From contig JAJRWI010000022.1 in the NCBI GenBank assembly GCA_024276825.1, positions 1 through 12,926 on the forward strand: a stretch of DNA of 12,926 bases, in the 5' to 3' direction. This DNA comes from an archaeon (GTDB taxonomy: Archaea; Asgardarchaeota; Thorarchaeia; Thorarchaeales; Thorarchaeaceae). The notes under the pieces are model-generated. The model was not told the origin of the DNA and made no database searches. It was given only the letters and a program-made list of their open reading frames with translations. Positions 1 through 12,926 of the stretch are shown piece after piece; position 1 is the stretch's first letter, and every line of letters begins with the position of its first letter. A program made the translations under genes and the position numbers.

Positions 1-1
1 C

Positions 2-808
2 CCGTTCTTTAATCATGGCACGGTCCACACAAGACGAGAACAGCTAGCGGCCTATTTGGATCACCGGGGAGTCCATCTGGCAAGGGCATTTGTTTCTGGT
101 TCGATGAGAAATCGGAGGGCACTCCTTCAATATTTCGCCAAGAATCGTCAGCAAAGCAGTCCAGATGTTTCAAAGCAACTGGAATCTCATGTGAAAAGCA
201 TCAGACAGATTGAGAGCGAGTTCAATGCATGGACTCCTAGCAGTGGATTACTTGACCGTGTCAGAGCTGAGATAATGGGCTTTGAGGCCCAAGCTGCAAA
301 GGTCTATTTTGCGGGACTGAAGGAAATTATTCCTGAGAAGTTCAACTTTGATGGTCGTGAGAAAAGACCTCCAAAAGATCCTGTCAATTCGCTATTGTCT
401 TACGGTTATACTCTGCTCTACAGCCGAGTGTTTACAGCAATTGCAGCTTGCGGACTGGAACCATTTGCAGGATTTCTTCATGCGGACCGATCAGGAAAGC
501 CATCTCTAGTTCTGGACATGGTCGAAGAGTTCAGGCAGGTGGCTGTTGACAGACTAGTGATTCGAATGTTGATGTTGAAGCAATTTACCCCAGAGGATTT
601 TGTAGTGGATGGAACGAGGATTATTATGACAGATGAGGCTCGTCGAAAGTTCTTGGGAGAACTGATTGAAGGCTTCAATTCCAACATTCGACATAAGGGG
701 AAGAAATTGATCTCATTGACTCAGGCGATGGTATATCAAGCTCGAAATCTCGTGCGATATTTGATAGGCAAGGAAAGGGAGTATAAGCCATATGTCTTCA
801 GGTGGTGA
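2..808 (+). CDS. cas1: CRISPR-associated integrase Cas1 (5' end outside the window)
   Basis: Frame is open from nt 2 (PFFNHGTVHTRREQLAAYLD...), so the TTG at 56 is not the true start. Cas1 motifs: MGFEAQAAKVYF, FDGREKRPPKDPVNSLLSYGYTLLY, GLEPFAGFLH, SLVLDMVEEFR (catalytic E/H/D present). Confidence 0.97.
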   Translation, partial: PFFNHGTVHTRREQLAAYLDHRGVHLARAFVSGSMRNRRALLQYFAKNRQQSSPDVSKQLESHVKSIRQIESEFNAWTPSSGLLDRVRAEIMGFEAQAAKVYFAGLKEIIPEKFNFDGREKRPPKDPVNSLLSYGYTLLYSRVFTAIAACGLEPFAGFLHADRSGKPSLVLDMVEEFRQVAVDRLVIRMLMLKQFTPEDFVVDGTRIIMTDEARRKFLGELIEGFNSNIRHKGKKLISLTQAMVYQARNLVRYLIGKEREYKPYVFRW

Positions 809-811
809 AGG

Positions 812-1102
812 ATGCAGCAAATTATTGTTTATGATATAGAAGATGATGCCTTGCGGACGAAGGTGAGCAATCTGCTGCAAGATTATGGTTTTGAGCGCGT
901 GCAGTTTAGTGTGTTCATTGGTTCAAGAACACAGAATGTTCTAAAGATGCTGGAGATCGAGATCAAAGATCTGATTGGAAAAAAGAAAGCGGATGTTAGA
1001 TTCTATCAGCAATGCGACAGATGCGTTGGAAAGACGATGATAGTATCAATAATTAGCAATACAGAATCTGCAGAGGTGATGTTCCCATGTCAAGGTCAAT
1101 AG
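812..1102 (+). CDS. cas2: CRISPR-associated protein Cas2
   Basis: 96 aa; IIVYDIEDD...R.KV..LL.DYGFERVQFSVF signature; C-terminal CxxC (CDRC); starts 3 nt after cas1 with SD-like AGGTGGTGA at 800-808. Confidence 0.97.
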   Translation: MQQIIVYDIEDDALRTKVSNLLQDYGFERVQFSVFIGSRTQNVLKMLEIEIKDLIGKKKADVRFYQQCDRCVGKTMIVSIISNTESAEVMFPCQGQ

Positions 1103-1689
1103 CTGTTAGGTCCTGTAAGGGGCCATTGCCAATGTTCAGTGTTGAGGACGTCAGGCAGTTTGTTTACTGCCCTAGGATAATCTACTTTCGCTACGTTCTT
1201 CGAAATATTCCTCAGGTATCAATCAAGATGAGAAAGGGATCCAAAAAACATGACCAATGGCGAAAGCGTCAGATCCAGCGCGGTGAGAGTTCAGACATAT
1301 TCTTTGGCCTCTTTTTCAAGTGTGAAGAGATTGGCTTGTGTGGACTACTAGATGCAGTCGAGTATGACGGTGAAACAGCAACACCTATCGAATTAAAAAC
1401 AGGCACTCATTTTAAGAATGATGTTTCTGCCCATCATCGTGCCCAAGTTATTGCTCAATGTGTCCTGCTTGAGTCCTGTCTGAATGTTAGAGTAAAGCAG
1501 GGCATTGTGATTTATTCGTCATCACGAGAACAACTCAAAGTAGACATTGGTGAAGAAGAAAGAGCGTGGCTGGAAAAGACTCTGTCAAGAATGCGTGATA
1601 TTGTCTTCTATGAGGAACTTCCCAGAGTATGCGAGTCAGAGGCAAAATGTGTGGACTGTGAATATTGGATGTGGTGCTTCCGTGTTTAA
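1087..1689 (+). CDS. cas4: CRISPR-associated exonuclease Cas4 (RecB-like, Fe-S cluster)
   Basis: QFVYCPRIIYF (first Cys), GLLDAVE and PIELK (RecB motifs), QVIAQ, C-terminal CVDCEYWMWC (three Cys). SD GAGGTGAT at 1073-1080 supports ATG 1087; alternative ATG at 1132. Confidence 0.95.
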   Translation: MSRSIAVRSCKGPLPMFSVEDVRQFVYCPRIIYFRYVLRNIPQVSIKMRKGSKKHDQWRKRQIQRGESSDIFFGLFFKCEEIGLCGLLDAVEYDGETATPIELKTGTHFKNDVSAHHRAQVIAQCVLLESCLNVRVKQGIVIYSSSREQLKVDIGEEERAWLEKTLSRMRDIVFYEELPRVCESEAKCVDCEYWMWCFRV

Positions 1690-1706
1690 ATACCAATTCA
1701 ATCAAG

Positions 1707-2591
1707 TCATTCAGAGGCAGATAATGATCTTTCAAAAGACCTTGTGTTTACCGCACCGAATCCAAAAGATCGCTTTGCCCCCACTCCCGAAAACTTTGCA
1801 AATCTTGTCAACAGGTTGACAATGTTGGCTAGGTCTTTTGATGCCTCTTTGGCAACCTTGTATCTTGTTCTACCAACAAAACCGGAGATAGGAATATGCC
1901 CTTTGATCCTTGCAGCTGCTGTTCTTATTGCATGCTGAGTCACGCACACATTTGATTTCAGGTTCTCCATGAACTTGTCCAACTCAATATGCAATTCATC
2001 TGGAGCAAATTTATTCCACAAGCTCGCAAGGCCTCCATACAAATATGTGGGCAGTGGAAACAGCATTGGAAATGATTCAGAGCGTATCTCAAATTTCGTG
2101 GGTGAGAGAAACTTGAACTCGTGAATTCTTGCACCAGTGCTATTTCTAATAATATCAACAAAGCTCATACTTTCAAAACGCATCCCCACAACCTTCAGAT
2201 TGACTTCTCCAATTCTGAGTGAACTTGACCAGTTATTGAAGATTCCTTCCATTATCCTTCTATTAACATCAAGTGACAGACTACATAGTCTAAAAGTCAT
2301 AATGAACCCTGGACGTATCTCCCATAATAATTCACGTTGATCGGACCTGAAGGGTAGCCTTATTGGAGCTACTGAATAGGGTCTACTTTTCTTTCCATCA
2401 TGCAATACTGAAACCAGTTCAGGATCATTCTTTGAAATCATGTGAAGAAGAGCTCCACGAATCAGATGTCCAGTGAAGTAATTGACTCTCCCGCTCTCCT
2501 CTGCAACAGCATCGACTTCAATCATCAATAAATCCTTGGGGGCAATACTTGGTATGTTCTCACTCACAAATCTTGGTACCATTTTCATCAC
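1707..2591 (-). CDS. cas6: CRISPR pre-crRNA processing endoribonuclease Cas6
   Basis: C-terminal G-rich loop FSGVGAKRSFGFG; N-terminal GHLIRGALL...LHD...RPYS; FLSPTKF, PLP and GFVG RAMP motifs. Start could be GTG 2591, ATG 2588 or ATG 2582 (GGAG at 2594-2591 favours the last). Confidence 0.95.
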   Translation of the reverse strand: MMKMVPRFVSENIPSIAPKDLLMIEVDAVAEESGRVNYFTGHLIRGALLHMISKNDPELVSVLHDGKKSRPYSVAPIRLPFRSDQRELLWEIRPGFIMTFRLCSLSLDVNRRIMEGIFNNWSSSLRIGEVNLKVVGMRFESMSFVDIIRNSTGARIHEFKFLSPTKFEIRSESFPMLFPLPTYLYGGLASLWNKFAPDELHIELDKFMENLKSNVCVTQHAIRTAAARIKGHIPISGFVGRTRYKVAKEASKDLANIVNLLTRFAKFSGVGAKRSFGFGAVNTRSFERSLSASE

Positions 2592-4687
2592 TCCTTATTC
2601 ATACTGATATATCGGGCTAATGCAACCAAACCACTTCCATCGAAGTATACCCTGGCCCCATTAGTGCTCTCTGCTACTGGATAACTCTCAAGACCCCACC
2701 CAAGACTTCTATGAGTGTCGTAATCAACAATCACATACATTCTATCAATGAAAAGACTGTTCAGTTCATCTACTCCTTCTTCATTGAGTGCAAGACCTAT
2801 TGGTGCACCAAGAAATTCGTCCTCATTAATTCCAACGAGGGGCCTGAACTGTCGCTCTTTGGGAAGATCAAACGAACAACTCATTTTAACATAACGCGAT
2901 TTAGTATTCATGTATTGGTATACATCCATTACACAGACCTTTCTTCCAGCGGAGTAGTGTATTCGGTACTCATCAATCAATGAGTTCATTGTATCTTTCG
3001 CAGTAGTATCGGTAATATTCTTTTGAAGCGCATAAAATGGGCGAAGTGCATCTTTTGGATCAGTTCCACGAATCTTGAATTTGGCAGCTCGACGAAGTAT
3101 TCTTGTAATCGGTGCAAAGTAGGCAGGGAAAAAGCCCTTCCGTTTGGCAGAATAATCGAGTACAAGTGCTTGTGGTTCTGAATTTCTAAGAGTTATGAAT
3201 TGTCCAGCAGCCTTTCGAATGAGTTCTTTCCATTCATCAATATCACTCAGATCATTTGCATCACCAAAAACTTTTGCAAAATATTTGTTTATTGATTCAG
3301 CACTCGCATGTGAGCTTGCTGCTGGTGTTGCTTCGATTAGTCTAATCAACTCATTGATCATTAATTGAGTTTCTAACTTTGCGATGGATGAGTCTAAATA
3401 CCATAACCCTGGGTCCTGCTCTCCATAAGCTGTCCTAATTAGCCCATTGAACTCGTCCCTTGAATTTATGGAATCAACATACTTCTTGAAATAATTGAAG
3501 ACATAGACCGGTGCAAACAGTATCGCTTGTCCCTCTCTATGACGCCCAACTCTACCTAGACGTTGTAGAGCTGAGGATGCATTCCATGCCTCAAACAATA
3601 GATGGCTTGTGTCAAAATCAATGCCAACTTCTATAGAACTTGTACCAACGAGAACTAATGCACCCGACCGATTACGACGCAAGGGTTGTGGAATGAGGCC
3701 ATGACTCTCTTTGATCTCAGATTCGTCAAAATCACCCATGAGCATCTCGGTCAATGCTCTTGCACTAATAACAGAATTGAGGATAACACAGGCTGGAATA
3801 TAGTCGTCATTAGGATTGTTTGCACGTAGCTCCCCTAGCTCCTCCCTCAGAGATACGAGGTGGTCTTTCATTTGAAGTAGATCTGCATCATCTTGTGGAC
3901 GAATCTCTATCTTGACATTATGAACTACAGTCATTCCTTGATCTTCAGACATGCATTGAATTGGATTTGGCCGTTTCATGTCACTAGCATGGACAATTCT
4001 CTTGAGATACTCCTGAATTCCCTTATGTGGCGTTGCTGTCATTAACAGGATTTGGTCGAACAGGTTAATGTATCTGGCAAGGGCAATATCGAAATATAAT
4101 GAAGATAGCTCGCGTTTCTCATATGAGTGAAACTCGTCAATAACCAGAGTCCTGTAATTACTCAGCGCCGCAAGAATCTCTGCTGCCCGTTTCCCATACC
4201 TCCTCTTACCCCCGTATCGCATTCGTATCATTAGGTGGAGTGTGTCAGGATTTGTAAGAACAAACTTCGTTCGCCCATCTACTCGTGGATATAACGCCCT
4301 CCTCAGAGCCGATGATTTTGAACTCAGCTCTTTCTCTTTAATCAGCCTAAGAAGATCTGCAGCGTGTACTGTAACAACTTCAGGCTCTTCTAATCCTGCC
4401 ACTTTACATATCTTTTTGATGCTCCTGACTTGATTCTCAATCAATTCGTTGGTCGGATAAACAAACAGTGCGGTTCTTGCTGCCCCGTCTAATGCAGCAA
4501 GAGTGGCTACCGCGGTCTTTCCCATGCCTGTTCCAGCGTACACTTCTAAAAGACAGGACTCACTCTTCTTAATCTCGTCCAAAGCTTGTGCTTGGTATTG
4601 GTAGAGATCAAGATTTCCAATTATGTGTCCTGATTGTCCGAGTCTAACAGGCGGGATGTTATAATTGACCTGGTCATCATCACTCAT
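2588..4687 (-). CDS. cas3: Type I-D Cas3' SF2 helicase (no HD domain)
   Basis: Q-motif YQYQAQAL, Walker A AGTGMGKT, YPTNELIENQ, LTNPD, DEFH, MTATP, ILNSV, GTSSIEVGIDF, QRLGRVGRH. The helicase starts almost at the N-terminus, leaving no room for an HD domain, as expected for I-D. Confidence 0.93.
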   Translation of the reverse strand: MSDDDQVNYNIPPVRLGQSGHIIGNLDLYQYQAQALDEIKKSESCLLEVYAGTGMGKTAVATLAALDGAARTALFVYPTNELIENQVRSIKKICKVAGLEEPEVVTVHAADLLRLIKEKELSSKSSALRRALYPRVDGRTKFVLTNPDTLHLMIRMRYGGKRRYGKRAAEILAALSNYRTLVIDEFHSYEKRELSSLYFDIALARYINLFDQILLMTATPHKGIQEYLKRIVHASDMKRPNPIQCMSEDQGMTVVHNVKIEIRPQDDADLLQMKDHLVSLREELGELRANNPNDDYIPACVILNSVISARALTEMLMGDFDESEIKESHGLIPQPLRRNRSGALVLVGTSSIEVGIDFDTSHLLFEAWNASSALQRLGRVGRHREGQAILFAPVYVFNYFKKYVDSINSRDEFNGLIRTAYGEQDPGLWYLDSSIAKLETQLMINELIRLIEATPAASSHASAESINKYFAKVFGDANDLSDIDEWKELIRKAAGQFITLRNSEPQALVLDYSAKRKGFFPAYFAPITRILRRAAKFKIRGTDPKDALRPFYALQKNITDTTAKDTMNSLIDEYRIHYSAGRKVCVMDVYQYMNTKSRYVKMSCSFDLPKERQFRPLVGINEDEFLGAPIGLALNEEGVDELNSLFIDRMYVIVDYDTHRSLGWGLESYPVAESTNGARVYFDGSGLVALARYISMNKE

Positions 4688-5384
4688 TCAGGTTCCCTCG
4701 CAGATGCTTGGGCATTGGAACAAAGAGTTCAGTTCCATCATCTTCTAAAACATAGTATGGTGCTTTCACTGTCATCCTTCTTGCAATGGGCGATGGAAAC
4801 ATCAATACAATATCTGCAGACTCAATGATGTCACTGGGGGATAGATCTAACACATTGAAAAAGAAGTTCACATCAATCAAGTCTTCTGGGTCATCAATTT
4901 TCCCCACCAGCTTCAGTCTGGTCGCTTTTACTTGGGCTATGCATGACTTTTTACCAATTCGAATATATGGGGGCATTCTCTCGCCAGTGGAAAAGACCAA
5001 GAACTCAAACTTAGTAGAATAGGGTGTCACCTTACGATTACGTCCCAATGAGGGGATATTAAAACTGGATTGTGTCAAATTAGTTCTGGAACAGACCGAG
5101 TTATACGTATGCGTCACGAATTTCGGGTCTGTCAGTGGTCTTGCTGGTGTGGCATAGTTCTCAAACTTGTAAAGTTCCTCATATCTTGGACTGGTTCCTA
5201 GGAAGCCTGTGTTAAACTGCTTTGCCAAGGCATAGGTCAGGGCATAATTATGAATCACTGGCTGCATTTGTGTGAATGTGTTGAACTCATACGACACGAA
5301 GAATAGGAAGTCCTCGGGTATGAGTTCACATCTGTACACTGCCTTGATCAAGCCTATCACCTGGTCTTTCTGGTCATTTGCCAT
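4680..5384 (-). CDS. cas5: Type I-D Cas5 (Csc1/Cas5d)
   Basis: YRCEL...DFLFFVSYE, IHNYALTYAL, YATPARP, PPYIRIGKK match the Csc1 pattern. The ORF-track start (5516) overlaps cas7 by 143 nt and is rejected. Real start is ATG 5384, or TTG 5351 (preceded by AGGTGA at 5362-5357). Confidence 0.9.
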   Translation of the reverse strand: MANDQKDQVIGLIKAVYRCELIPEDFLFFVSYEFNTFTQMQPVIHNYALTYALAKQFNTGFLGTSPRYEELYKFENYATPARPLTDPKFVTHTYNSVCSRTNLTQSSFNIPSLGRNRKVTPYSTKFEFLVFSTGERMPPYIRIGKKSCIAQVKATRLKLVGKIDDPEDLIDVNFFFNVLDLSPSDIIESADIVLMFPSPIARRMTVKAPYYVLEDDGTELFVPMPKHLRGNLNE

Positions 5385-6321
5385 TGAGGATTTTTTCCCT
5401 GAATGATGCTGCATCAGTGTACATTTTCTCAATCCACTTCTTGGTTGGCTTCGCCTTTCGCAACTGCTGCTCAAGAGCAATGACTTCATCCTTGGAAAGG
5501 ACTTTGTTGTTCCCATCCCTAATCATTGCGAGTATTCCATTATGAGTTGCCTCGAGGATATTGTCGTAAGTAAGAATTGGATTCTCTTTTTCTTCAACTA
5601 GTTCTTCATAGATGTCCATAGTTAGCCTGAGAGCTGAGAATTGCTCTGAGTCAGAGAACACAAGGCTGAGAATCTTGTTCTCTATGACCCCCATCCCACG
5701 TGTTTCTGCACCGTATCTAGTCGTATTGAGCATAGAATACAGATAGAACTTTAGCTCATCCAATGTTGGTGCCAATAGGGTCACTACTGAGATGAAATGG
5801 GTGTCTGGCTTGACCAGCTCTCGCTCACCTAATGCCTGCCCTGTTTTTGTGGTCTTTTCATTGACTGCATTGAATGTGATGCTCTCTACAACATCTTCAA
5901 ATGGCAATATCGAGAATGCGGTCTGATATAGAAGCCGACTCTTTATTGAGATCTCTCCAGCACCCTTTTCTGCTTTAATCCCGCCATTTAATGCACACAC
6001 TGGACATTTCAAGCATAATTCATCCTTCAAATAGCATTCATCTGCTTCAGGCATGATGTCACGAATGATCTGTGATTCATGACGTCGCTCAACAGCCTTT
6101 TGTTTTGAGGCAAGAATCAAAGCACGATCGATTATCTTATTGGCTTTCTTTGAGGCAGGTGTAGCAACACTGTTTGTATACTTGTCAGCCTCCGTCCTGA
6201 ATGCCGCATAATCGAGTGTGCGTCTCAAGATGGCAATGCTCACATATTTTGCTGGTGCAAGTGGTGTTGGTTTGTCGATAAACCACTCACTCTCCTGATC
6301 AAGTAGTTCTATTTTCATCAC
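5374..6321 (-). CDS. cas7: Type I-D Cas7 (Csc2) backbone subunit
   Basis: YVSIAILRRT, SKQKAVERR, Cys cluster CYLKDELCLKCPVCALNG, KSRLLYQTAFS, TRYGAET. SD GGAGGT at 6333-6328; start GTG 6321 or ATG 6318. Confidence 0.93.
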   Translation of the reverse strand: MMKIELLDQESEWFIDKPTPLAPAKYVSIAILRRTLDYAAFRTEADKYTNSVATPASKKANKIIDRALILASKQKAVERRHESQIIRDIMPEADECYLKDELCLKCPVCALNGGIKAEKGAGEISIKSRLLYQTAFSILPFEDVVESITFNAVNEKTTKTGQALGERELVKPDTHFISVVTLLAPTLDELKFYLYSMLNTTRYGAETRGMGVIENKILSLVFSDSEQFSALRLTMDIYEELVEEKENPILTYDNILEATHNGILAMIRDGNNKVLSKDEVIALEQQLRKAKPTKKWIEKMYTDAASFREKILNGK

Positions 6322-6705
6322 CTATTTACCTCCTTTTTTTGATTGAAATTTCTCATTGATTGAGATTAACCTCTTTAGATATACTGCGTAGCGTAAGTCA
6401 TCAAGGATCTTTTTACGACTCCTTGCACTCTCTTTCTCAAGTCTTTCAGCCAAATCTTTACAGACCTTGAGAATTGGTTCTGCCGCTTCAGAATACAGAT
6501 AATCTCCTTTGTTCAATTGTTGTAGCTGTCGATGAACTCGTCCAGCAATAGACTCTATCCTCTCAGAATCGAGAGTTGGAGTTTTTCTAAATTCTACATA
6601 TAGAGCATTTATCGGTCCTAGTATGGAATGCATGGATGATCCATACTTCTCAGGTCGATAATATTGCTCTAGGATATCCACTATTTCATCCACTAATGTT
6701 CCCAT
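6322..6705 (-). CDS. cas11d: Probable internally translated small subunit Cas11d (in frame within cas10d)
   Basis: AAGGAAGTGGAT-ATG-ATG inside cas10d: SD-like GGAAGTG at 6718-6712, ATGs at 6708 and 6705. The product would be the 127-128 aa helical C-terminus. Internal translation of Cas11d is established for I-D systems. Confidence 0.75.
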   Translation of the reverse strand: MGTLVDEIVDILEQYYRPEKYGSSMHSILGPINALYVEFRKTPTLDSERIESIAGRVHRQLQQLNKGDYLYSEAAEPILKVCKDLAERLEKESARSRKKILDDLRYAVYLKRLISINEKFQSKKGGK

Positions 6706-8982
6706 CATATCCACTTCCTTTAATCCTGTTAGAACCATTAATTCCTGCTCACTTAAGCGGGGATATTCACGTTTGAGAAGTATTCTTTGGGCTAACTGTC
6801 CTGGGTGAGTCGTCAATGCTTGCTGAATACCATTGCGTTTTGAGAGATCGGCAAACAATCGGGCACGCATTGCGAGTGCAATTTTCAGTCCGATTCGTGC
6901 TGCATCGTTAAAATCAACAACCCCTTTTCTAAGTCCTAAAGTCCTGAGAAGACTTCCATTTCCAGGAAAGATCACTGCACCATCTAATTCATTGACATCC
7001 ACCATGTCCAACCCTTCAATGATCTTTACCCTCACTTCGAGAATCAGACTCAATGTCAGTGCTTGCAATAGAATCATTGCTAGGCCTTCAGAATTAGCAA
7101 GACCGGTTCTGTCAGGGCTTGTACTCATAATCACATAATTGCCCATGATGTTGTCTGAAATTTTGAAAGGTTCGCGATCGGCTACACATAACTTTTCCAA
7201 TCGCTCCTTGATCTCAGCGGCGTGGTTTACTACCTCTCCACTCAAGAACATCTTTACAGACTTTTCAGGACTTCGATCCAGCCTTCTGAGATATATCGCC
7301 TTTTTTCTTAGACTCTCTGCTCTCTCCGCCGATATAGACACCTGAGGTACCAGAACATATCCATAGCCAATGGCACCTCTAAGAATTCCTTCAAGCAAAC
7401 ATAATTTACAGATGTTGATATTATCAAGGCGCGTAGTCCCAATTCCGACATTTACGAACTTCTTAGTTCCAGAACCCACGCCCGCAGCAATTGCCTTTGT
7501 TCCAAGTGCGGCAGATCCACATATGGGACACCTCACGTTGCCATCAATTGAACCCATCGCACTCTGCTTCGCACTCAAATATGTCTTATGAAATTGATCG
7601 GCCACTGCGTGAATTGGGCTAGGGCCCGCAGAATTTGACAGCTTGGCATTGATTAAGACTGGATGTCCCACATCGGTGATTAATTGTATTAGATAATCAT
7701 CAATCTCAATTGATTTGAGCGGGTCAAATTCATCACTTGAAAAATAGCTCATCATCTCTTTGACAAGTTGAAGATACCCCTTCTTTATTGATGTGAGCAC
7801 AGAATCTAATGGCATTGTCAGAAGGTCTCGTGAGGCGTGTCCTCCCAATTGGAGTGCTTTGGAAACCTTGTCAATCTCTCCATTCCAAAAGTCATAACTC
7901 ATTGGAAGCCCTATCTTGCCAAGATCCAGTCCGAGAATCTTTAACTCAAGAGTTGACAGCTCATCAGTTGCCTTTTGCTTCTCAGACTCGTCAATATCAA
8001 GCAGATTGATCTTCCTACGCAGCGCATCTTGAAGAGTTGAAATGAATCTCAGAAATATGGCACGTTTTTGTTCATCCGTTTTTTGTGGAAGAGAAGCTGT
8101 TCTTGATTCAGCATACTCTATGAAAACAGGCAGTGAGTCGAGTGCCACCAGACCCTCGTTTGCAATCATGGCCCGATTTATCTGCATTGCAGTAGAACTC
8201 TCAAGAAATGTCTTTTCTAAGAGAGCATTTTTTAGGAGAGTTCCAATTCGTTCTATTACTTGCTCCTTCAGACTGTTGATGTCAGGTCGCTCTCTTCCAA
8301 GAAATAGACAACCATTAGGAAATACAGCAAGCGTCTTGAGTCCATTTTCATTGTATGTTTCTTGCAATGCTTTATGCAGGATGTAAGTCAAGACTCCACG
8401 AATTTTTAGCAAAGAGTAGTACTCAAAATATATACTGAACTGCTCAAGAATTGGTTGGAAGTCTTCTGCTTTTGTTGCACGATACGCATCTTCGGGTGTA
8501 TTGGCAGAAGCAATCCAGTCTGCAAGTTTAGTGATGTCTCCCAGAAATATCAACGAGGAGGTCTCCCCTCCCCTACGTACCTGTTTTTCAGCCCTCAATG
8601 AAGATACTGTTTCTCCAATCCCTCGATGCGTGGCAATTACTACTGCAAACACATCGTTTATCAAAGAATCATCTGAAATCTCGCAAAGGCTCAAGAATTC
8701 ACCAATTTGGTCGTGTGTAGGGAGATGGGGTGGGGTCTTGCCTTTTTGGAGGCCTTCCTGAAACTCAGGAAACTCCTTACCCAGATCATGAAGAAATGCT
8801 GCTAGCATGAGGACCTTTCTCTGTGTGCGATCAAGGTCAAATGTATCCGCGATAGTCAATGCAATATCCATTACTGCTTGCGAATGGGCCAAAATTGTCT
8901 GACTTGGATGACTCTTCGCAAGCAGTTTGTGCCAGTTTCTGGTTCTTGCTGCTTTGACAAGGTCCTTCTCAGTGATCTTCAT
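6322..8982 (-). CDS. cas10d: Type I-D large subunit Cas10d (Csc3) with N-terminal HD nuclease
   Basis: 886 aa; Cas3-like HD domain (LAKS..QTILAHS, AFLHDLGK, IATH, KLADWIAS); Zn finger CPICG...CKLC; helical C-terminus with YYRP...SMHSILGP; lies directly upstream of csc2 and csc1. Confidence 0.9.
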   Translation of the reverse strand: MKITEKDLVKAARTRNWHKLLAKSHPSQTILAHSQAVMDIALTIADTFDLDRTQRKVLMLAAFLHDLGKEFPEFQEGLQKGKTPPHLPTHDQIGEFLSLCEISDDSLINDVFAVVIATHRGIGETVSSLRAEKQVRRGGETSSLIFLGDITKLADWIASANTPEDAYRATKAEDFQPILEQFSIYFEYYSLLKIRGVLTYILHKALQETYNENGLKTLAVFPNGCLFLGRERPDINSLKEQVIERIGTLLKNALLEKTFLESSTAMQINRAMIANEGLVALDSLPVFIEYAESRTASLPQKTDEQKRAIFLRFISTLQDALRRKINLLDIDESEKQKATDELSTLELKILGLDLGKIGLPMSYDFWNGEIDKVSKALQLGGHASRDLLTMPLDSVLTSIKKGYLQLVKEMMSYFSSDEFDPLKSIEIDDYLIQLITDVGHPVLINAKLSNSAGPSPIHAVADQFHKTYLSAKQSAMGSIDGNVRCPICGSAALGTKAIAAGVGSGTKKFVNVGIGTTRLDNINICKLCLLEGILRGAIGYGYVLVPQVSISAERAESLRKKAIYLRRLDRSPEKSVKMFLSGEVVNHAAEIKERLEKLCVADREPFKISDNIMGNYVIMSTSPDRTGLANSEGLAMILLQALTLSLILEVRVKIIEGLDMVDVNELDGAVIFPGNGSLLRTLGLRKGVVDFNDAARIGLKIALAMRARLFADLSKRNGIQQALTTHPGQLAQRILLKREYPRLSEQELMVLTGLKEVDMMGTLVDEIVDILEQYYRPEKYGSSMHSILGPINALYVEFRKTPTLDSERIESIAGRVHRQLQQLNKGDYLYSEAAEPILKVCKDLAERLEKESARSRKKILDDLRYAVYLKRLISINEKFQSKKGGK

Positions 8983-9005
8983 TTGAGAGTTTCATCTGGC
9001 CATTC

Positions 9006-9024
9006 ATATATAAGCCTTACTTAT
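9006..9024 (-). promoter_or_regulatory. Archaeal TATA box (and BRE) of the cas10d operon, probably a leaderless transcript
   Basis: Minus strand reads TAAGTAAGGC-TTATATAT; first T at 9013 is 31 nt upstream of the cas10d ATG; no SD precedes that ATG. Confidence 0.65.
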
Positions 9025-9081
9025 TGGTTAATTCTCAATATCAAAGTTTACAAATAGGGGGCCAATACGTCAACCTTAGAC

Positions 9082-10527
9082 TTATTCATCAATTTCCCTA
9101 ATGTCTTTATTATCAAACTCCTTTTTAATTTGAATACAATATTTAATGACTTGGTGATTATTGATATTTATCCGAAAGGTCATTTTTGCACTTGTCTTTC
9201 TTGAGGCCAATGTAGTGATCAATTGAAGTTGCTTTAGACTGTCAAGTAATTTTCCAGGAACTGGATATATGTCGGTCTTCTCATGAGGTTGGGTATACCT
9301 GTCTGGAAATCGCCCCTCAAGTATTTGTGCACCAATATGAATCTGGTTTGCAGTCCTAACGCCCATTCTGTCTTCGGCAATTCTAAAGCGCTGCGGGTCC
9401 TCTTCCATCAAGAGTTGATCATGTAAGAATGCAAGAACAAGATAGTCAAATACATTCAAGATGGGCGAGTCGAGTTTGGGCATACCGGGAAGTTGGAAAA
9501 GTCTATTTATTGTTGGCACCAATTTGCTCTTTAATGGCTCAGTGCATCCTGCCAGAAAAATCACATCTTTTGATTGAAATTGTTGAAGCCAGTCTGTAAA
9601 TTCTTTCTTCAAATCCAGCTCAATTTTGGCAAGACCAATCGTATCTGCAATCTTCTCAAAAGCCCTTCTTTGATAACTCCAAGGCAGGATGTGCGCGGTT
9701 AATTTCTTGGAATATACATAGTGGTGTGATGAGTGACTGATGAACAAGCATTCAATCAACTCACGAATGGCTCTTCTATGTGAGATATCACTATCACGGA
9801 CCGTGTGCCACAACACAGGAATTACAACCCTTTGAGCAAATGCAAAGAACACAGCATTACATAATCTTTGCATCAATAATTTGGAAGTCTGTGAGCCAAC
9901 CTCTATCGTCACATGATTATTGTTTTGAATGGAAACAATAGAAAAACTGGAATGGCTTGAGTCTTGTTTTCCGGACTTGATTAAATCGATTTGAAAGCAA
10001 TCGGAGAAGCTTGGCCTAATTTGATCTTTACACCCAAATAGAGCTTTAGAGATAATATGTTTCGTTTCCTTGAGTCCATTGAATAATTGATCTCTCTGAG
10101 ATTTGACGAGTTCAGCAGGAATCTTGGCTTGAGTTGAGGTTGTAATTCTTCTTCTGACCTCTGCATATAGTGATGGATATACGAGTATCTCCTGAACTAC
10201 ATGAAATTCCGCAGAGTCAAAAGTCTCATGATAGGCATGCTTTGCAATCAAAGGAACGGGCATTCGATGTTTCATTCTATGATCATTTGAAATTCGAGCT
10301 TGATGCACAGACATCCCAAGCATCGGACCCTTCAAAGTCCATTTTAGCAGACCATGACCATTAATGAAAGTTTTAGTTTCGAGATTTATTCGTCTTGCCA
10401 AGCACTCCTTAAACTTCGACCATAATTCATCCCGATTGCCAAGGAATAACAAGTCTTGTCGAAGCTCTCTATTAAAGAGAACTACTTCAGGAAGGGGCAT
10501 AAAAGATGAGATTTGGACCCGATGCAT
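9082..10527 (-). CDS. Hypothetical protein (481 aa), possible C-terminal winged helix
   Basis: Long ORF; SD GAGGTG at 10541-10536; TAATG stop/start overlap with the upstream gene. The C-terminal pattern LNVFDYLVLAFL...TANQI...LLDSLKQLQLI...FRIN resembles a wHTH (weak). No family recognised. Confidence 0.8.
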   Translation of the reverse strand: MHRVQISSFMPLPEVVLFNRELRQDLLFLGNRDELWSKFKECLARRINLETKTFINGHGLLKWTLKGPMLGMSVHQARISNDHRMKHRMPVPLIAKHAYHETFDSAEFHVVQEILVYPSLYAEVRRRITTSTQAKIPAELVKSQRDQLFNGLKETKHIISKALFGCKDQIRPSFSDCFQIDLIKSGKQDSSHSSFSIVSIQNNNHVTIEVGSQTSKLLMQRLCNAVFFAFAQRVVIPVLWHTVRDSDISHRRAIRELIECLFISHSSHHYVYSKKLTAHILPWSYQRRAFEKIADTIGLAKIELDLKKEFTDWLQQFQSKDVIFLAGCTEPLKSKLVPTINRLFQLPGMPKLDSPILNVFDYLVLAFLHDQLLMEEDPQRFRIAEDRMGVRTANQIHIGAQILEGRFPDRYTQPHEKTDIYPVPGKLLDSLKQLQLITTLASRKTSAKMTFRININNHQVIKYCIQIKKEFDNKDIREIDE

Positions 10528-12047
10528 TATGTTCCCACCTCAAAGTCGACATCACTAATCCACCAGTCCTTATAACCATCTAGCCATCTGTGAACGGGAA
10601 GTTTCCATTTGATAAAATGCATATCTCCCAAATATGTTATCCACCGTTTTCTTCCTCGCAGGAAATCATTTAGATCCTCTACTATGTCTCTCACATGTTC
10701 TTCAGGAACTCTGAGCACTAATGATGTATATCCCTCGACTGTTCGTTCAGCATACACCTCTGGTAAACATGACACTGCATTACATAATTGCAAATGCAAT
10801 TTATGAGGGATTTTTGTCATGACTACTATTACTCCAGGTGCAAAAAGGGGGGTTGGGATCACTCGATTAATAATCACATTATGTTCTCGAAGTCTATTGT
10901 GCCTTTCTACCACAAAATTGTAGTCTTTCTTGAGAATGTTTCTAAGCTCACGGAGTGTTAACGGGCCTTTGCTTGTCAAATGACTTATGATCTGAATATC
11001 TGTTTCATCAAGAAGAGTTCTTTCCAAATCGGATTCCAATGATTGTTGGGACATATCATCTATTTCTCTAGTAAACCCTGAACGCATCATTGGGCTGAAA
11101 ATTCCTGTTTGGACCTCCCATGTGACACCATTAAACATGTTGTAATTGAAGTGCATCCAATTCATGGGTTCTATTCGGTTGAAAACATTGACAAATCTCA
11201 CATCGTCAAGCTCACTCAATTTGCGGACCCAATTCCTTGCCTCAGATTGCGACCTCCATGAATCAGGTACCACAAAATGGGCAATAGCAAAGTGGGATCC
11301 CATTCTTGATTCAAAGAGACTATACAACCAAGGATTGTTTGCAGAGAATGCAGGAGGAAGTTCTGCATCAAGACTTGTGAGTTCCACTAGCGCTATTAGA
11401 ACTTGCAGGCCCAAAGCTTTGAATGAGAATCTTACTCTCTCCCACAGTATCACTCTCTCCTTAAGACTGTTAATCACTCTTGAAACATAGCCTTTTGTCA
11501 TGCCCAGTTGCCTTGCAAGCTTAGTTGGTGAGAGAGTCTGTTGTTCAAGGGCTAATCGAAATACATCGAGTTCTCGTGCTGTGAGTCTGGGGGTGAGATC
11601 AGCTCGTATTCTGAAAAACGCTTTCAGAAAATCTTCAACAACTGCAGTTTCGGATTGATTCAACAACTCTCTGTAAATTCTTATGAGGTGCTCGAATCTA
11701 TCGGGTGCTTGCAGAAATAGATAGTACGCCCCCGGTGGGTCATATATCCTGCTTGTCAGATCACCTCTTATCTTTGTGGTGGACGCCCACAACTGCTCCC
11801 AATTCTTCAACTCATCCCAACTCAACCCAAGTCTATCTCTCAATAACTGTTCCACTCTGAAGCATACCAAGTCCCATCCAATAGTGCCAGGTGCCGCAAA
11901 TAATGACTCTTGCATTTCGGCCGCTTCGTCTGATATCTGATCCAGCTCACTAGACTTCTCATTCCAGATGTCCTTCAATAGCTCTATCAGCTGGCCAATT
12001 CTCGTTACTGCCTTTTTTGCCACGCGATACAAATTGGAATTCTCCAA
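10527..12047 (-). CDS. Tandem winged-HTH (Lrp/AsnC-like) transcription regulator with an extra N-terminal domain
   Basis: Two wHTH units (LTARELDVFRLALEQQTLSPTKLARQLGMTKGYVSRVINSL...FKALGL; LDETDIQIISHLTSKGPLTLRELRNILKKDYNFVVERHNRLREHNVI), each followed by an alpha/beta segment compatible with an Lrp RAM domain. Start uncertain: TTG 12047 or GTG 12023. Confidence 0.75.
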   Translation of the reverse strand: MENSNLYRVAKKAVTRIGQLIELLKDIWNEKSSELDQISDEAAEMQESLFAAPGTIGWDLVCFRVEQLLRDRLGLSWDELKNWEQLWASTTKIRGDLTSRIYDPPGAYYLFLQAPDRFEHLIRIYRELLNQSETAVVEDFLKAFFRIRADLTPRLTARELDVFRLALEQQTLSPTKLARQLGMTKGYVSRVINSLKERVILWERVRFSFKALGLQVLIALVELTSLDAELPPAFSANNPWLYSLFESRMGSHFAIAHFVVPDSWRSQSEARNWVRKLSELDDVRFVNVFNRIEPMNWMHFNYNMFNGVTWEVQTGIFSPMMRSGFTREIDDMSQQSLESDLERTLLDETDIQIISHLTSKGPLTLRELRNILKKDYNFVVERHNRLREHNVIINRVIPTPLFAPGVIVVMTKIPHKLHLQLCNAVSCLPEVYAERTVEGYTSLVLRVPEEHVRDIVEDLNDFLRGRKRWITYLGDMHFIKWKLPVHRWLDGYKDWWISDVDFEVGT

Positions 12048-12066
12048 GTTTTAAGGGTGTTTTTTC
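12048..12066 (-). promoter_or_regulatory. Candidate TATA box for the regulator gene
   Basis: Minus strand reads AAAAAACACC-CTTAAAAC; first T at 12054 is 31 nt upstream of GTG 12023, the same spacing as at cas10d. Confidence 0.4.
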
Positions 12067-12067
12067 G

Positions 12068-12107
12068 ACCTATTATCATTGTTTCATAACTATTGGAACC
12101 TATTATC
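12068..12107. repeat. 10-bp direct repeat ACCTATTATC x2
   Basis: Exact copies at 12068-12077 and 12098-12107 (30-bp period), flanking the imperfect palindrome GTTTCA-TAACTAT-TGGAAC. Confidence 0.7.
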
Positions 12108-12389
12108 TCTGATGTTTTCCGCCCAATTACGTCAGGGAGTTTCACGTCAGATGTCCTGGCGGAGGTGATAAGATGCATAATCCGCCAGGAGACCCATCTC
12201 CTGTTCCACCATGGTGCTAATTGGAACTCCTGAATGATATCCAACAAGCCAAAAGCTTGTTTCAGTATAATTGTTGGGATGCCCTTTGAACCAAGCTCCA
12301 GATCAAGGAGTTTCATACGGCCTAGACCCTGAATCAATCAGGGTCTTACCCTCAGACAACATGACGAGGGCATCCATCTCTTTTTTCTT
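12081..12389 (+). ncRNA. Putative structured RNA of unknown family
   Basis: Perfect stems 12154-63/12181-90 (10 bp), 12203-08/12222-27, 12243-49/12255-61, 12277-85/12367-75 (9 bp), 12324-32/12338-46 (9 bp), plus 12293-99/12307-13 with one G-U. G-U pairs favour the + strand. Ends in a T-tract at 12381-12389. Boundaries are approximate. Confidence 0.5.
12173..12220 (+). CDS. Putative 15-aa proline-rich mini-peptide MHNPPGDPSPVPPWC
   Basis: Perfect archaeal SD GGAGGTGAT at 12161-12169, ATG 12173, TAA 12218-12220. Confidence 0.45.
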   Translation: MHNPPGDPSPVPPWC

Positions 12390-12877
12390 ACACATATTCC
12401 TATTAACATATCGATTGAATCAACCATTAATGATATTGTTCTGATTTTTATGTGCTATTTAATTCCAAATGCGATCCATAATTTCCCACTTCTATCTCAC
12501 CAAGATTCGTGCCTCCGAGTCCCAATAGTATTCTTGACCTATTGCATACTAATGGAAAAACATTAGTCACATCATAAGCCCCCTTCTTTAAAATAATGCT
12601 ATTTTATTCTCCAATATACTCCAAATAGGGTATCTTTATGTGCATTTTTTAGACAGCAGTTTATTAGATTCAATTTATTGTTTTTCGCAGTTCCCCATCT
12701 CGTTAATTGCAAAAATGATGCGATTTCATTACTATAATTGGCAAAATAGCACTCTAGTCGCAGATGTCCTACCGTGGTCTATTATTAATTGCGCATCACA
12801 AATGTTGAACTCCGCCAAATTTTTGAACATACCCCGCCATAGTGGCAAAAACTAAATACTTTTAGGAAAATGACAGG
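12390..12877 (+). promoter_or_regulatory. AT-rich CRISPR leader region (5' limit uncertain)
   Basis: Non-coding and AT-rich, directly 5' of the repeat; BRE/TATA-like AAAAACTAAATA at 12847-12858. Confidence 0.6.
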
Positions 12878-12926
12878 GTTGAAGATCAAAAGCCTCAGCT
12901 AAGAGGATTGAAAGTTCATTGACATC
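12878..12926 (+). CRISPR. First repeat (12878-12914) and start of the first spacer of a CRISPR array running off the window
   Basis: 37-nt GTTGAAGATCAAAAGCCTCAGCTAAGAGGATTGAAAG: GTT start, CCTC/GAGG hairpin, canonical 8-nt ATTGAAAG handle right after the stem, preceded by an AT-rich leader next to a cas operon. Only one copy is visible. Confidence 0.8.

Follow-up and report, generated by a model that had tools for sequence, protein, structure and literature searches.

CreT toxin RNAs of type I CRISPR-Cas loci need strong initiation signals, special consecutive codons and a stem-loop, together with a CreA guide that has repeat-like flanks and matches the creT promoter (PMC8501985; 10.64898/2026.06.02.729485). 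The CreT of the Pseudomonas aeruginosa type I-F system requires a Shine-Dalgarno (SD) sequence, two consecutive proline codons and a hairpin, and arrests translation (bioRxiv 10.64898/2026.06.02.729485). From another side, the tripeptide PPW is the polyamine- and eIF5A-dependent pause site of the upstream conserved coding region (uCC) of AZIN1, and a top pause motif in bacteria that lack EF-P (PMC8705083). Features of both kinds meet in a 15-codon, proline-rich open reading frame (the mini-ORF) at a type I-D CRISPR-Cas locus of an Asgard archaeon of the family Thorarchaeaceae (assembly GCA_024276825.1, contig JAJRWI010000022.1, positions 1 to 12,926; this whole stretch of 12,926 nucleotides is called the window hereafter). 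To judge from its pattern of conservation, the mini-ORF is a genuine micro-gene that is translated and whose peptide is under selection. Together with a divergent tandem Lrp/AsnC-type regulator and a 481-aa winged-helix protein it forms a three-part module; no description of the element was found in the literature that we searched. The central features are:

12173-12220, + strand: mini-ORF MHNPPGDPSPVPPWC, 15 codons, with ATG at 12173 and stop codon TAA at 12218-12220
12161-12169, + strand: Shine-Dalgarno sequence GGAGGTGAT, 3 nt before the ATG, containing the sole GGAGGTGA of the window
12154-12163 (TCCTGGCGGA) with 12181-12190 (TCCGCCAGGA), + strand: perfect 10-bp stem, pairing the first SD bases with codons 3-6 and holding the ATG in the loop

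An earlier, sequence-only reading had described this spot as an SD and a mini-ORF with six prolines locked in a hairpin, and had proposed a CreT-like toxin RNA or a leader peptide. The parts that it listed are all present in the sequence: the SD, the 15 codons of which six encode proline (CCG, four CCA and CCT), the 10-bp stem, and an alternative pairing of CAGGAG (12186-12191) with CTCCTG (12198-12203). It had also suggested looking for a conserved SD and peptide with synonymous changes beside homologues of the regulator, and exactly this was found at 13 loci. These loci, with 12 distinct sequences, come from Thorarchaeota genomes and metagenomes and were collected by degenerate pattern scans, by searches with the regulator and by look-up of homologues of the 481-aa protein. 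The DNA search of relatives first matched a block 150 nt downstream, and the tiny ORF was then read upstream of that block. At all 13 loci it lies divergent from orthologues of the gene pair for the regulator and the 481-aa protein; the conserved SD and peptide beside regulator homologues thus mark the element as a genuine unit of translation that is linked to the divergent regulator. Across the loci the ORF has 13 to 24 codons and shares the core x-P-[GDE]-D-P-x-P-[IV]-P-P-[WF], preceded by an N-terminus of varying length and followed by 0 to 7 residues after the W or F. Every copy carries at least one of PPG, PPD, PPE, PPW and PPF, which are established stall motifs, the stalling itself being predicted here. 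Besides that of the window, the peptides are (with our own handles for genomes and loci):

L109/L110: MTNPPGDPFPIPPWTE
L111: MNWPGDPSPVPPWTF
L112/L113: MDFPGDPHPVPPWTE
G011: MQRPPDDPFPIPPWD
G013, TTG start: YHPPDDPHPIPPW
G024: MALSSPPGDPHPIPPW
G009: MYRPPDDPSPIPPF
G043, GTG start: TANPGDPYPIPPWVPDGPRA
L119: of the G043 type, with CTG at the position of G043's GTG start
G006, GTG start: NPGDPWPIPPWRPA
L048 (metagenome): MWPPEDPNPIPPW
L120: MSSHPPDDGLPIGPF

In 11 aligned cores, the entropies at codon positions 1, 2 and 3 are 0.33, 0.43 and 1.45 bits, and pairwise comparison counts 285 synonymous versus 146 non-synonymous codon differences. Proline is encoded by all four codons (CCA 22, CCG 17, CCT 13 and CCC 10 times over the cores). 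Since third positions are nearly random and all four proline codons occur, selection evidently acts on the peptide and not on a particular codon or tRNA. Sequestration of a tRNA through particular codons, which the sequence-only reading had named for CreT toxin RNAs, finds no support in this use of all four codons over the orthologues, nor in the window copy, which is dominated by CCA, the commonest proline codon of the genome (41%). The element is narrowly distributed: a relaxed pattern found it in 7 of 400 Asgard genomes, all of the window's own family, and the reversed control pattern gave 0 matches. A close orthologue of the regulator (E < 1e-90) is present in 7/7 of these genomes, and in the sole other genome with such an orthologue, G041, the contig stops before the position of the ORF. 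No comparable mini-ORF was found beside 17 distant paralogous regulator loci or beside the in-genome paralogue on contig C4. Pattern matches in Limosilactobacillus, Thermoflexus, Streptomyces and others were discarded as chance, being inside or antisense to long ORFs and without SD or start codon, and a single IMG/VR virus match was rejected as part of a long viral ORF. Two antisense ORFs at the locus were likewise set aside: one of 110 aa (12005-12337, - strand), for which the antisense peptides of the core differ among the loci, and one of 30 aa (12303-12395, - strand), whose frame is broken by a 1-nt indel in a hairpin loop of the downstream RNA element described below, whereas the stems there co-vary as RNA.

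The SD is the other conserved part. It is present in every copy, 4 to 7 nt ahead of the start, in the form GGAGGTGA (L119 and L120 included) except in G011 (GAGGTGA) and L048 (GGTGA). In the 2.9-Mb genome GGAGGTGA occurs only 52 times, of which 7 precede ORFs longer than 100 aa, and SD hexamers stand upstream of only a small minority of the genes. Of the claim that SD and start are locked in a hairpin, the stem itself is real in the window, but it is neither conserved in position nor above synonymous recodings. The segment 12149-12220 folds with -27.1 kcal/mol (z = -2.9; equalled by 3 of 200 shuffles), and in all orthologues the predicted pairing of the SD amounts to 40-90%. Its partner site varies: codons 3-6 in the window, the PPW codons in L109 and L111, and other sites elsewhere. 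The alternative pairings of the window, when looked for in the orthologues, were not conserved. Against 150 synonymous recodings per ORF at 11 loci, the natural SD pairing took ranks from 0.007 to 0.96 (0.47 for the window) and did not stand out as a whole (Fisher, hand-computed over the 11 loci, p ~0.12). Composition alone makes a purine-rich SD pair with neighbouring CCN codons, and the lock is not a selected trait.

The mini-ORF probably has a transcript of its own, and the flanking features read from the window would make it a monocistronic unit:

12123-12145, + strand: conserved upstream motif CCAATTACGTCAGGGAGTTTCAC, consensus CCAATTAGCTnAGGGAGTTYC
12099-12107, + strand: TATA-like box CCTATTATC, ca. 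22 nt upstream of the motif, a conserved CCTATTAT box
12069-12077: second TATA-like copy, fitting a promoter of the divergent regulator
12303-12315, + strand: second copy of the motif core, TCAAGGAGTTTCA, with 1 mismatch to TCAGGGAGTTTCA at 12132-12144
12324-12370, + strand: two-hairpin RNA element (hairpin 1, 12324-12346; hairpin 2, 12349-12370)
12377-12389, + strand: T-run TCTCTTTTTTCTT, likely the archaeal oligo-T terminator of the mini-ORF transcript
12399-12407: conserved box CCTATTAAC directly after the T-run, likely a separate promoter
12770-12865: conserved A/T-rich block TTATTAATT ... AAAAACTAAATACT just before the first array repeat, which may be the array's promoter

The distance from the upstream motif to the start codon is mostly about 50-53 nt (50, 51, 52, 53, 77 and 81 nt across loci). 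As it is not a multiple of three, the motif is non-coding and the ORF starts where we place it; the motif is probably the 5' terminus of the RNA, or else serves as operator or initiator. The TATA-like box is a probable promoter element, of a type of A/T-rich hexamer that is enriched upstream of the genes of this genome. No sequence complementary to the motif occurs consistently elsewhere in the individual loci. The second copy of the motif core, for which the chance expectation is ca. 0.015, is conserved only in the closest relative; placed directly ahead of the two-hairpin element, it may serve as another operator or promoter.

At the other end, a hairpin or hairpins followed by a T-run were found at every locus with downstream sequence. 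The stretch from the stop codon to the two-hairpin element has no run of at least five T; a scan for bacterial-type terminators found none, and the T-run was read instead as an archaeal oligo-T signal. There is no ORF between stop codon and T-run at any locus, and a leader-peptide attenuator of the classical form, the alternative offered by the sequence-only reading, is therefore unlikely. The two-hairpin element is present in 7/7 loci that have downstream sequence and in which cas10d-cas3 follow the 481-aa gene (the contig of G024 ends just after the ORF and is outside this count), while G006, G043 and L119 have only a GC-rich hairpin and the T-run. Compensatory changes occur in 7 of its 14 base pairs, 95.9% of the cells are paired, and 0 of 500 shuffles were as good; a covariance model found one copy per genome, and only in four genomes, all with a cas-linked module. 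The four unpaired cells are all A.C, equivalent to G.U on the other strand, so that the transcribed strand of the element is not proven; the universal + strand T-run favours the + strand. An Rfam search of 11900-12926 returned no family, the best match being a chance snoR71 (E 0.32).

For the function of the micro-gene we tentatively favour an independent small RNA under heavy translation, with a polyproline peptide that would stall ribosomes in an aIF5A-dependent manner, as a toxin or a sensor under the divergent regulator. The unit would run from the TATA-like box and the motif through the near-perfect SD, the ORF of 13-24 codons and a short spacer to the oligo-T terminator, in cas-linked loci with the two-hairpin element between spacer and terminator. 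The strong SD would bring about heavy ribosome loading; the nascent P-[GDE]-D-P-x-P-[IV]-P-P-[WF], with PPG or PPD and PPW, known as strong EF-P/eIF5A-dependent pause motifs, would then stall the ribosomes unless aIF5A relieves them, and the RNA would be either a translation-arresting toxin or a sensor of the state of translation or of aIF5A. The divergent regulator would govern transcription of the RNA through the conserved motif. Such an RNA would act much like a CreT toxin of the proline-codon kind, with control by a protein in place of the CreA guide and a peptide-specific arrest sequence in place of bare codons. A ribosome-centred action is favoured because the core is conserved, the constraint stops at the W or F, a pause motif occurs in every copy, and the proline-codon CreT provides a precedent. 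The core is still ca. 9/11 identical in L048, whose regulator is at 24% identity, and conservation in the face of such divergence of the partners (24-40% identity) is more easily explained by a highly conserved target such as the ribosome than by a partner protein that co-evolves with the peptide. Variability of the N-terminus and of the tail after the W or F is what a constraint reaching only as far as the stall site would produce. The retention of an 8-9-nt SD in nearly all copies, rare as it is in the genome, also counts for stalling.

Several observations weigh against this. All the sequences come from metagenome-assembled genomes and metagenomes. There is no universal PPX motif, the first PP being replaced by NP, WP or FP in five loci and the core of L120 reading PPDDGLPIGPF. 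A free peptide that binds a partner could explain the invariant D and [IV] just as well. No target in cis was found after the ORF, and control by the regulator is suggested solely by the divergent layout and the conserved motif. Finally, three GTG or TTG starts, and CTG in L119, are odd for a toxin that needs efficient initiation. A more far-reaching version, which we regard as unlikely, would make the mini-ORF the first nascent-peptide arrest element of archaea and a prokaryotic equivalent of the PPW sensor in the AZIN1 uCC. Its PPG/PPW pause would depend on the status of aIF5A (hypusine/polyamine) or of Pro-tRNA and would thus signal translation stress, for instance in virus infection, to the regulator module that heads the CRISPR operon.

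The partner genes and the neighbourhood of the mini-ORF are as follows. The window, a complete contig (C11) of a metagenome-assembled genome, holds a type I-D CRISPR-Cas locus with cas1, cas2 and cas4 on the + strand, and cas6, cas3', cas5d/csc1, cas7d/csc2 and HD-cas10d on the - strand; the two module genes stand upstream of cas10d in the same operon. The regulator gene and the array are 830 nt apart, and the mini-ORF occupies part of this gap, on the strand opposite to the regulator.

10527-12047, - strand: divergent regulator, 506 aa, an N-terminal helical domain plus two tandem Lrp/AsnC-like units (wHTH+RAM)
9082-10527, - strand: 481-aa protein (unk481), joined to the regulator gene, in the module wherever sequence is available
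12878-12914, + strand: first type I-D array repeat, in the same orientation as the mini-ORF; the array goes on in contig C22

The regulator matches families of winged helix-turn-helix proteins, and its structural model (pLDDT 86) matches NirDL (4czc_A) with Z 14.9 over 277 aa and single Lrp/AsnC chains with Z 7-8.7. According to the model, residues 157-506 form the tandem Lrp/AsnC-like part, preceded by an extra helical domain of ca. 150 residues; no TPR-type match was obtained for the all-helical residues 1-150, a part that the search barely covered. Distant paralogues of the regulator are widespread, being present in 46 of 86 genomes of the family; a word-based search of genome contigs with the regulator gave no match. 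The 481-aa protein belongs to no Pfam, NCBIfam or PADLOC family and had no usable Atlas feature match and no Foldseek match in the PDB; a search of 5.8 billion protein clusters yielded just 7 homologues. In its model (pLDDT 89.9) residues 346-475 form a C-terminal winged helix of the Orc/Cdc6 and MarR type (Z 8-9), and the N-terminal ca. 320 residues resemble only uncharacterised MJ0711_N/SCO2521 models.

In most loci the regulator/481-aa pair are the first genes of the type I-D cas operon. No cas genes adjoin the module in G006, G041, G043 and L119, of which G006 and G043 belong to one genus (g5) and L119 is a close relative. In L104, L105, L106 and L119, that is in g5 and this relative, the module stands alone, its neighbours being unrelated genes (for beta-propeller proteins, Fer4 proteins and a HepT/MNT pair), from which we infer a mobile or independent unit that joins type I-D loci only sometimes. 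As to the arrays, the 12 visible bases of the leader-proximal spacer of the window (TTCATTGACATC, 12915-12926; the rest lies past the contig end) match exactly a site inside cas10d of the same locus (6988-6999). Chance alone would give ca. 0.0015 such matches; the site is flanked on its 5' side by TAA, not by GTN, the protospacer adjacent motif of type I-D. In G043, two identical 29-nt repeats around a 38-nt spacer form a mini-array (L082, 2070-2165) ca. 200 nt past the mini-ORF terminator; no local target of the spacer was found when looked for, and cas genes are not adjacent there.

The main rival to ribosome stalling, which we hold to be somewhat unlikely, is that the product is a free micropeptide of 13-24 residues, proline-rich and acidic, that serves as a co-regulator by binding the regulator, the 481-aa protein or a Cas component. 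Selection on the peptide, with invariant D, P, [IV] and W/F beyond what proline codons would explain, agrees with it, as do the strict divergence of the gene from the regulator/481-aa pair at all loci, a strong SD suited to an abundant product and the RAM-type ligand-binding domains of the regulator. The two Gly-for-Pro changes in L120 are compatible with a ligand of the polyproline-II type. Against it stands a core that is nearly fixed although the identity of its presumed partners falls to 24-40%; the known ligands of RAM domains are amino acids and not peptides, and no TPR-type peptide-binding domain was matched in the regulator, with the N-terminal domain barely covered by the search. To our knowledge there is also no precedent in archaea for so short and unstructured a peptide as a cytoplasmic regulator. 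A switch in cis would place the effect in the RNA itself: progress or stalling of ribosomes on the ORF would set the folding, stability or termination of the downstream RNA, by way of the two-hairpin element or of read-through toward the CRISPR leader, and so couple Pro-tRNA or aIF5A to CRISPR expression. ORF, two-hairpin element and T-run do lie on one strand without an earlier T-run; the element covaries and is restricted to genomes with a cas-linked module; the array follows in the same orientation in the window, G009 and G013; and bacterial leader ORFs with proline codons, such as mgtL and mgtP, act in this way. What makes such a switch improbable is that the spacer between stop codon and element is poorly conserved (ca. 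30-180 nt), that the array is inverted in G011, and that the g5 loci retain the ORF without two-hairpin element or cas genes; moreover, the A/T-rich block before the first repeat may be a promoter of the array itself, and the alternative pairings of the window are not conserved.

Least likely of all, and in our view highly improbable, is a true CreTA pair, in which the mini-ORF RNA would be CreT and a very degenerate CreA nearby would guide the I-D Cascade to repress its promoter. The anatomy (strong SD, short ORF, downstream hairpin, terminator) and the position at the cas operon do match CreT, and a CreT with proline codons already exists. Type I-D loci often have mini-arrays that regulate cargo genes upstream of cas10d (PMC10120712); the two-repeat mini-array of G043 lies 200 nt downstream, and the stretch 12293-12313 weakly resembles the repeat hairpin of the G011 type. 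Membership in CreTA does not follow, because no CreA-like repeat or guide was found, the codons are common and the peptide is conserved, which is not a property of CreT. No repeat-like sequence rose above shuffled controls (best ungapped match 22/37 versus shuffle maxima of 20-22; best score of a gapped search against four I-D repeats 24 versus a 95% level of 26), and a repeat-like candidate at 12285-12318 was rejected on the same ground. Nor do changes in the upstream motif or in hairpin 2 track the repeat of the respective genome. The 13 spacers of C22 and the fragment of the first spacer showed no seed match in 12001-12878, the sole shared 11-mer being mid-spacer, and no match of a guide to the promoter was above chance; the G043 spacer has no local target, and one genus keeps the module without adjacent cas genes.

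If the ribosome-stalling reading is correct, CRISPR-linked proline-codon RNA toxins would extend from one bacterial species to Asgard archaea, in a form controlled by a protein regulator and in which the sequence of the peptide matters. If the product is a free regulator peptide, its 15 residues would place it among the smallest conserved gene products of archaea. Either way, the locus holds a micro-gene that gene callers missed, and with it a new three-part module that attaches to type I-D systems.

Compared with described systems, the Asgard unit resembles the CreT of P. aeruginosa as a small RNA at a type I CRISPR-Cas locus with a canonical SD, a short ORF containing consecutive non-rare proline codons, a stabilising hairpin downstream and a proposed translational arrest. 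CreT of P. aeruginosa is, however, a 15-nt "minimal ORF" in which only Pro-Pro followed by a stop is needed and any proline codon works, whereas the Asgard mini-ORFs have 13-24 codons and a conserved peptide of 10-11 residues that includes D, I/V and W/F. They also differ in that a divergent protein regulator takes the place of the CreA guide, none having been found, and in being archaeal, of type I-D and in some copies without cas genes. The haloarchaeal CreT toxins (H. hispanica, H. hubeiense; PMC8501985) share the archaeal type I locus, the strong SD (H. hispanica), the efficient start, the mini-ORF, the stem-loop and the terminator; they sequester rare tRNAs through pairs of AGA or AUA codons (PMC8501985), unlike the Asgard mini-ORF, where the commonest proline codon dominates the window copy, four proline codons serve over the loci, the peptide is conserved and no repeat-like CreA was found. 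With the AZIN1 uCC (Ivanov et al. 2018, as summarised in PMC8705083) it has in common a short conserved coding region with PPW, aIF5A being the archaeal homologue of eIF5A; its peptide thus carries the same motif by which eukaryotes sense polyamines. The AZIN1 uCC is a eukaryotic upstream ORF that controls the main ORF downstream by ribosome queuing, in contrast to the Asgard mini-ORF with its SD-driven initiation, its CRISPR-linked regulator module and no downstream ORF. The likeness between the two is probably convergent.

The layout further recalls the Rgg/SHP, PrgX/PrgQ and ComR/ComS systems of Gram-positive bacteria, where a tiny ORF lies beside a regulator gene, often divergent from it, and the conserved part of the peptide is C-terminal. 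Peptides of the Rgg/SHP type are hydrophobic, are exported and re-imported, and bind regulators of the TPR type. The Asgard mini-ORF likewise adjoins a regulator gene and has its conserved part at the C-terminal end of the peptide; its product, unlike theirs, is acidic and proline-rich without an export signal, its regulator is of the tandem Lrp/AsnC type, and in the micropeptide reading it would act inside the cell. Control of a downstream gene, a property of ribosome arrest and leader peptides, is not seen in the Asgard unit; what it does share with them is a peptide conserved up to a defined point and a stall motif.

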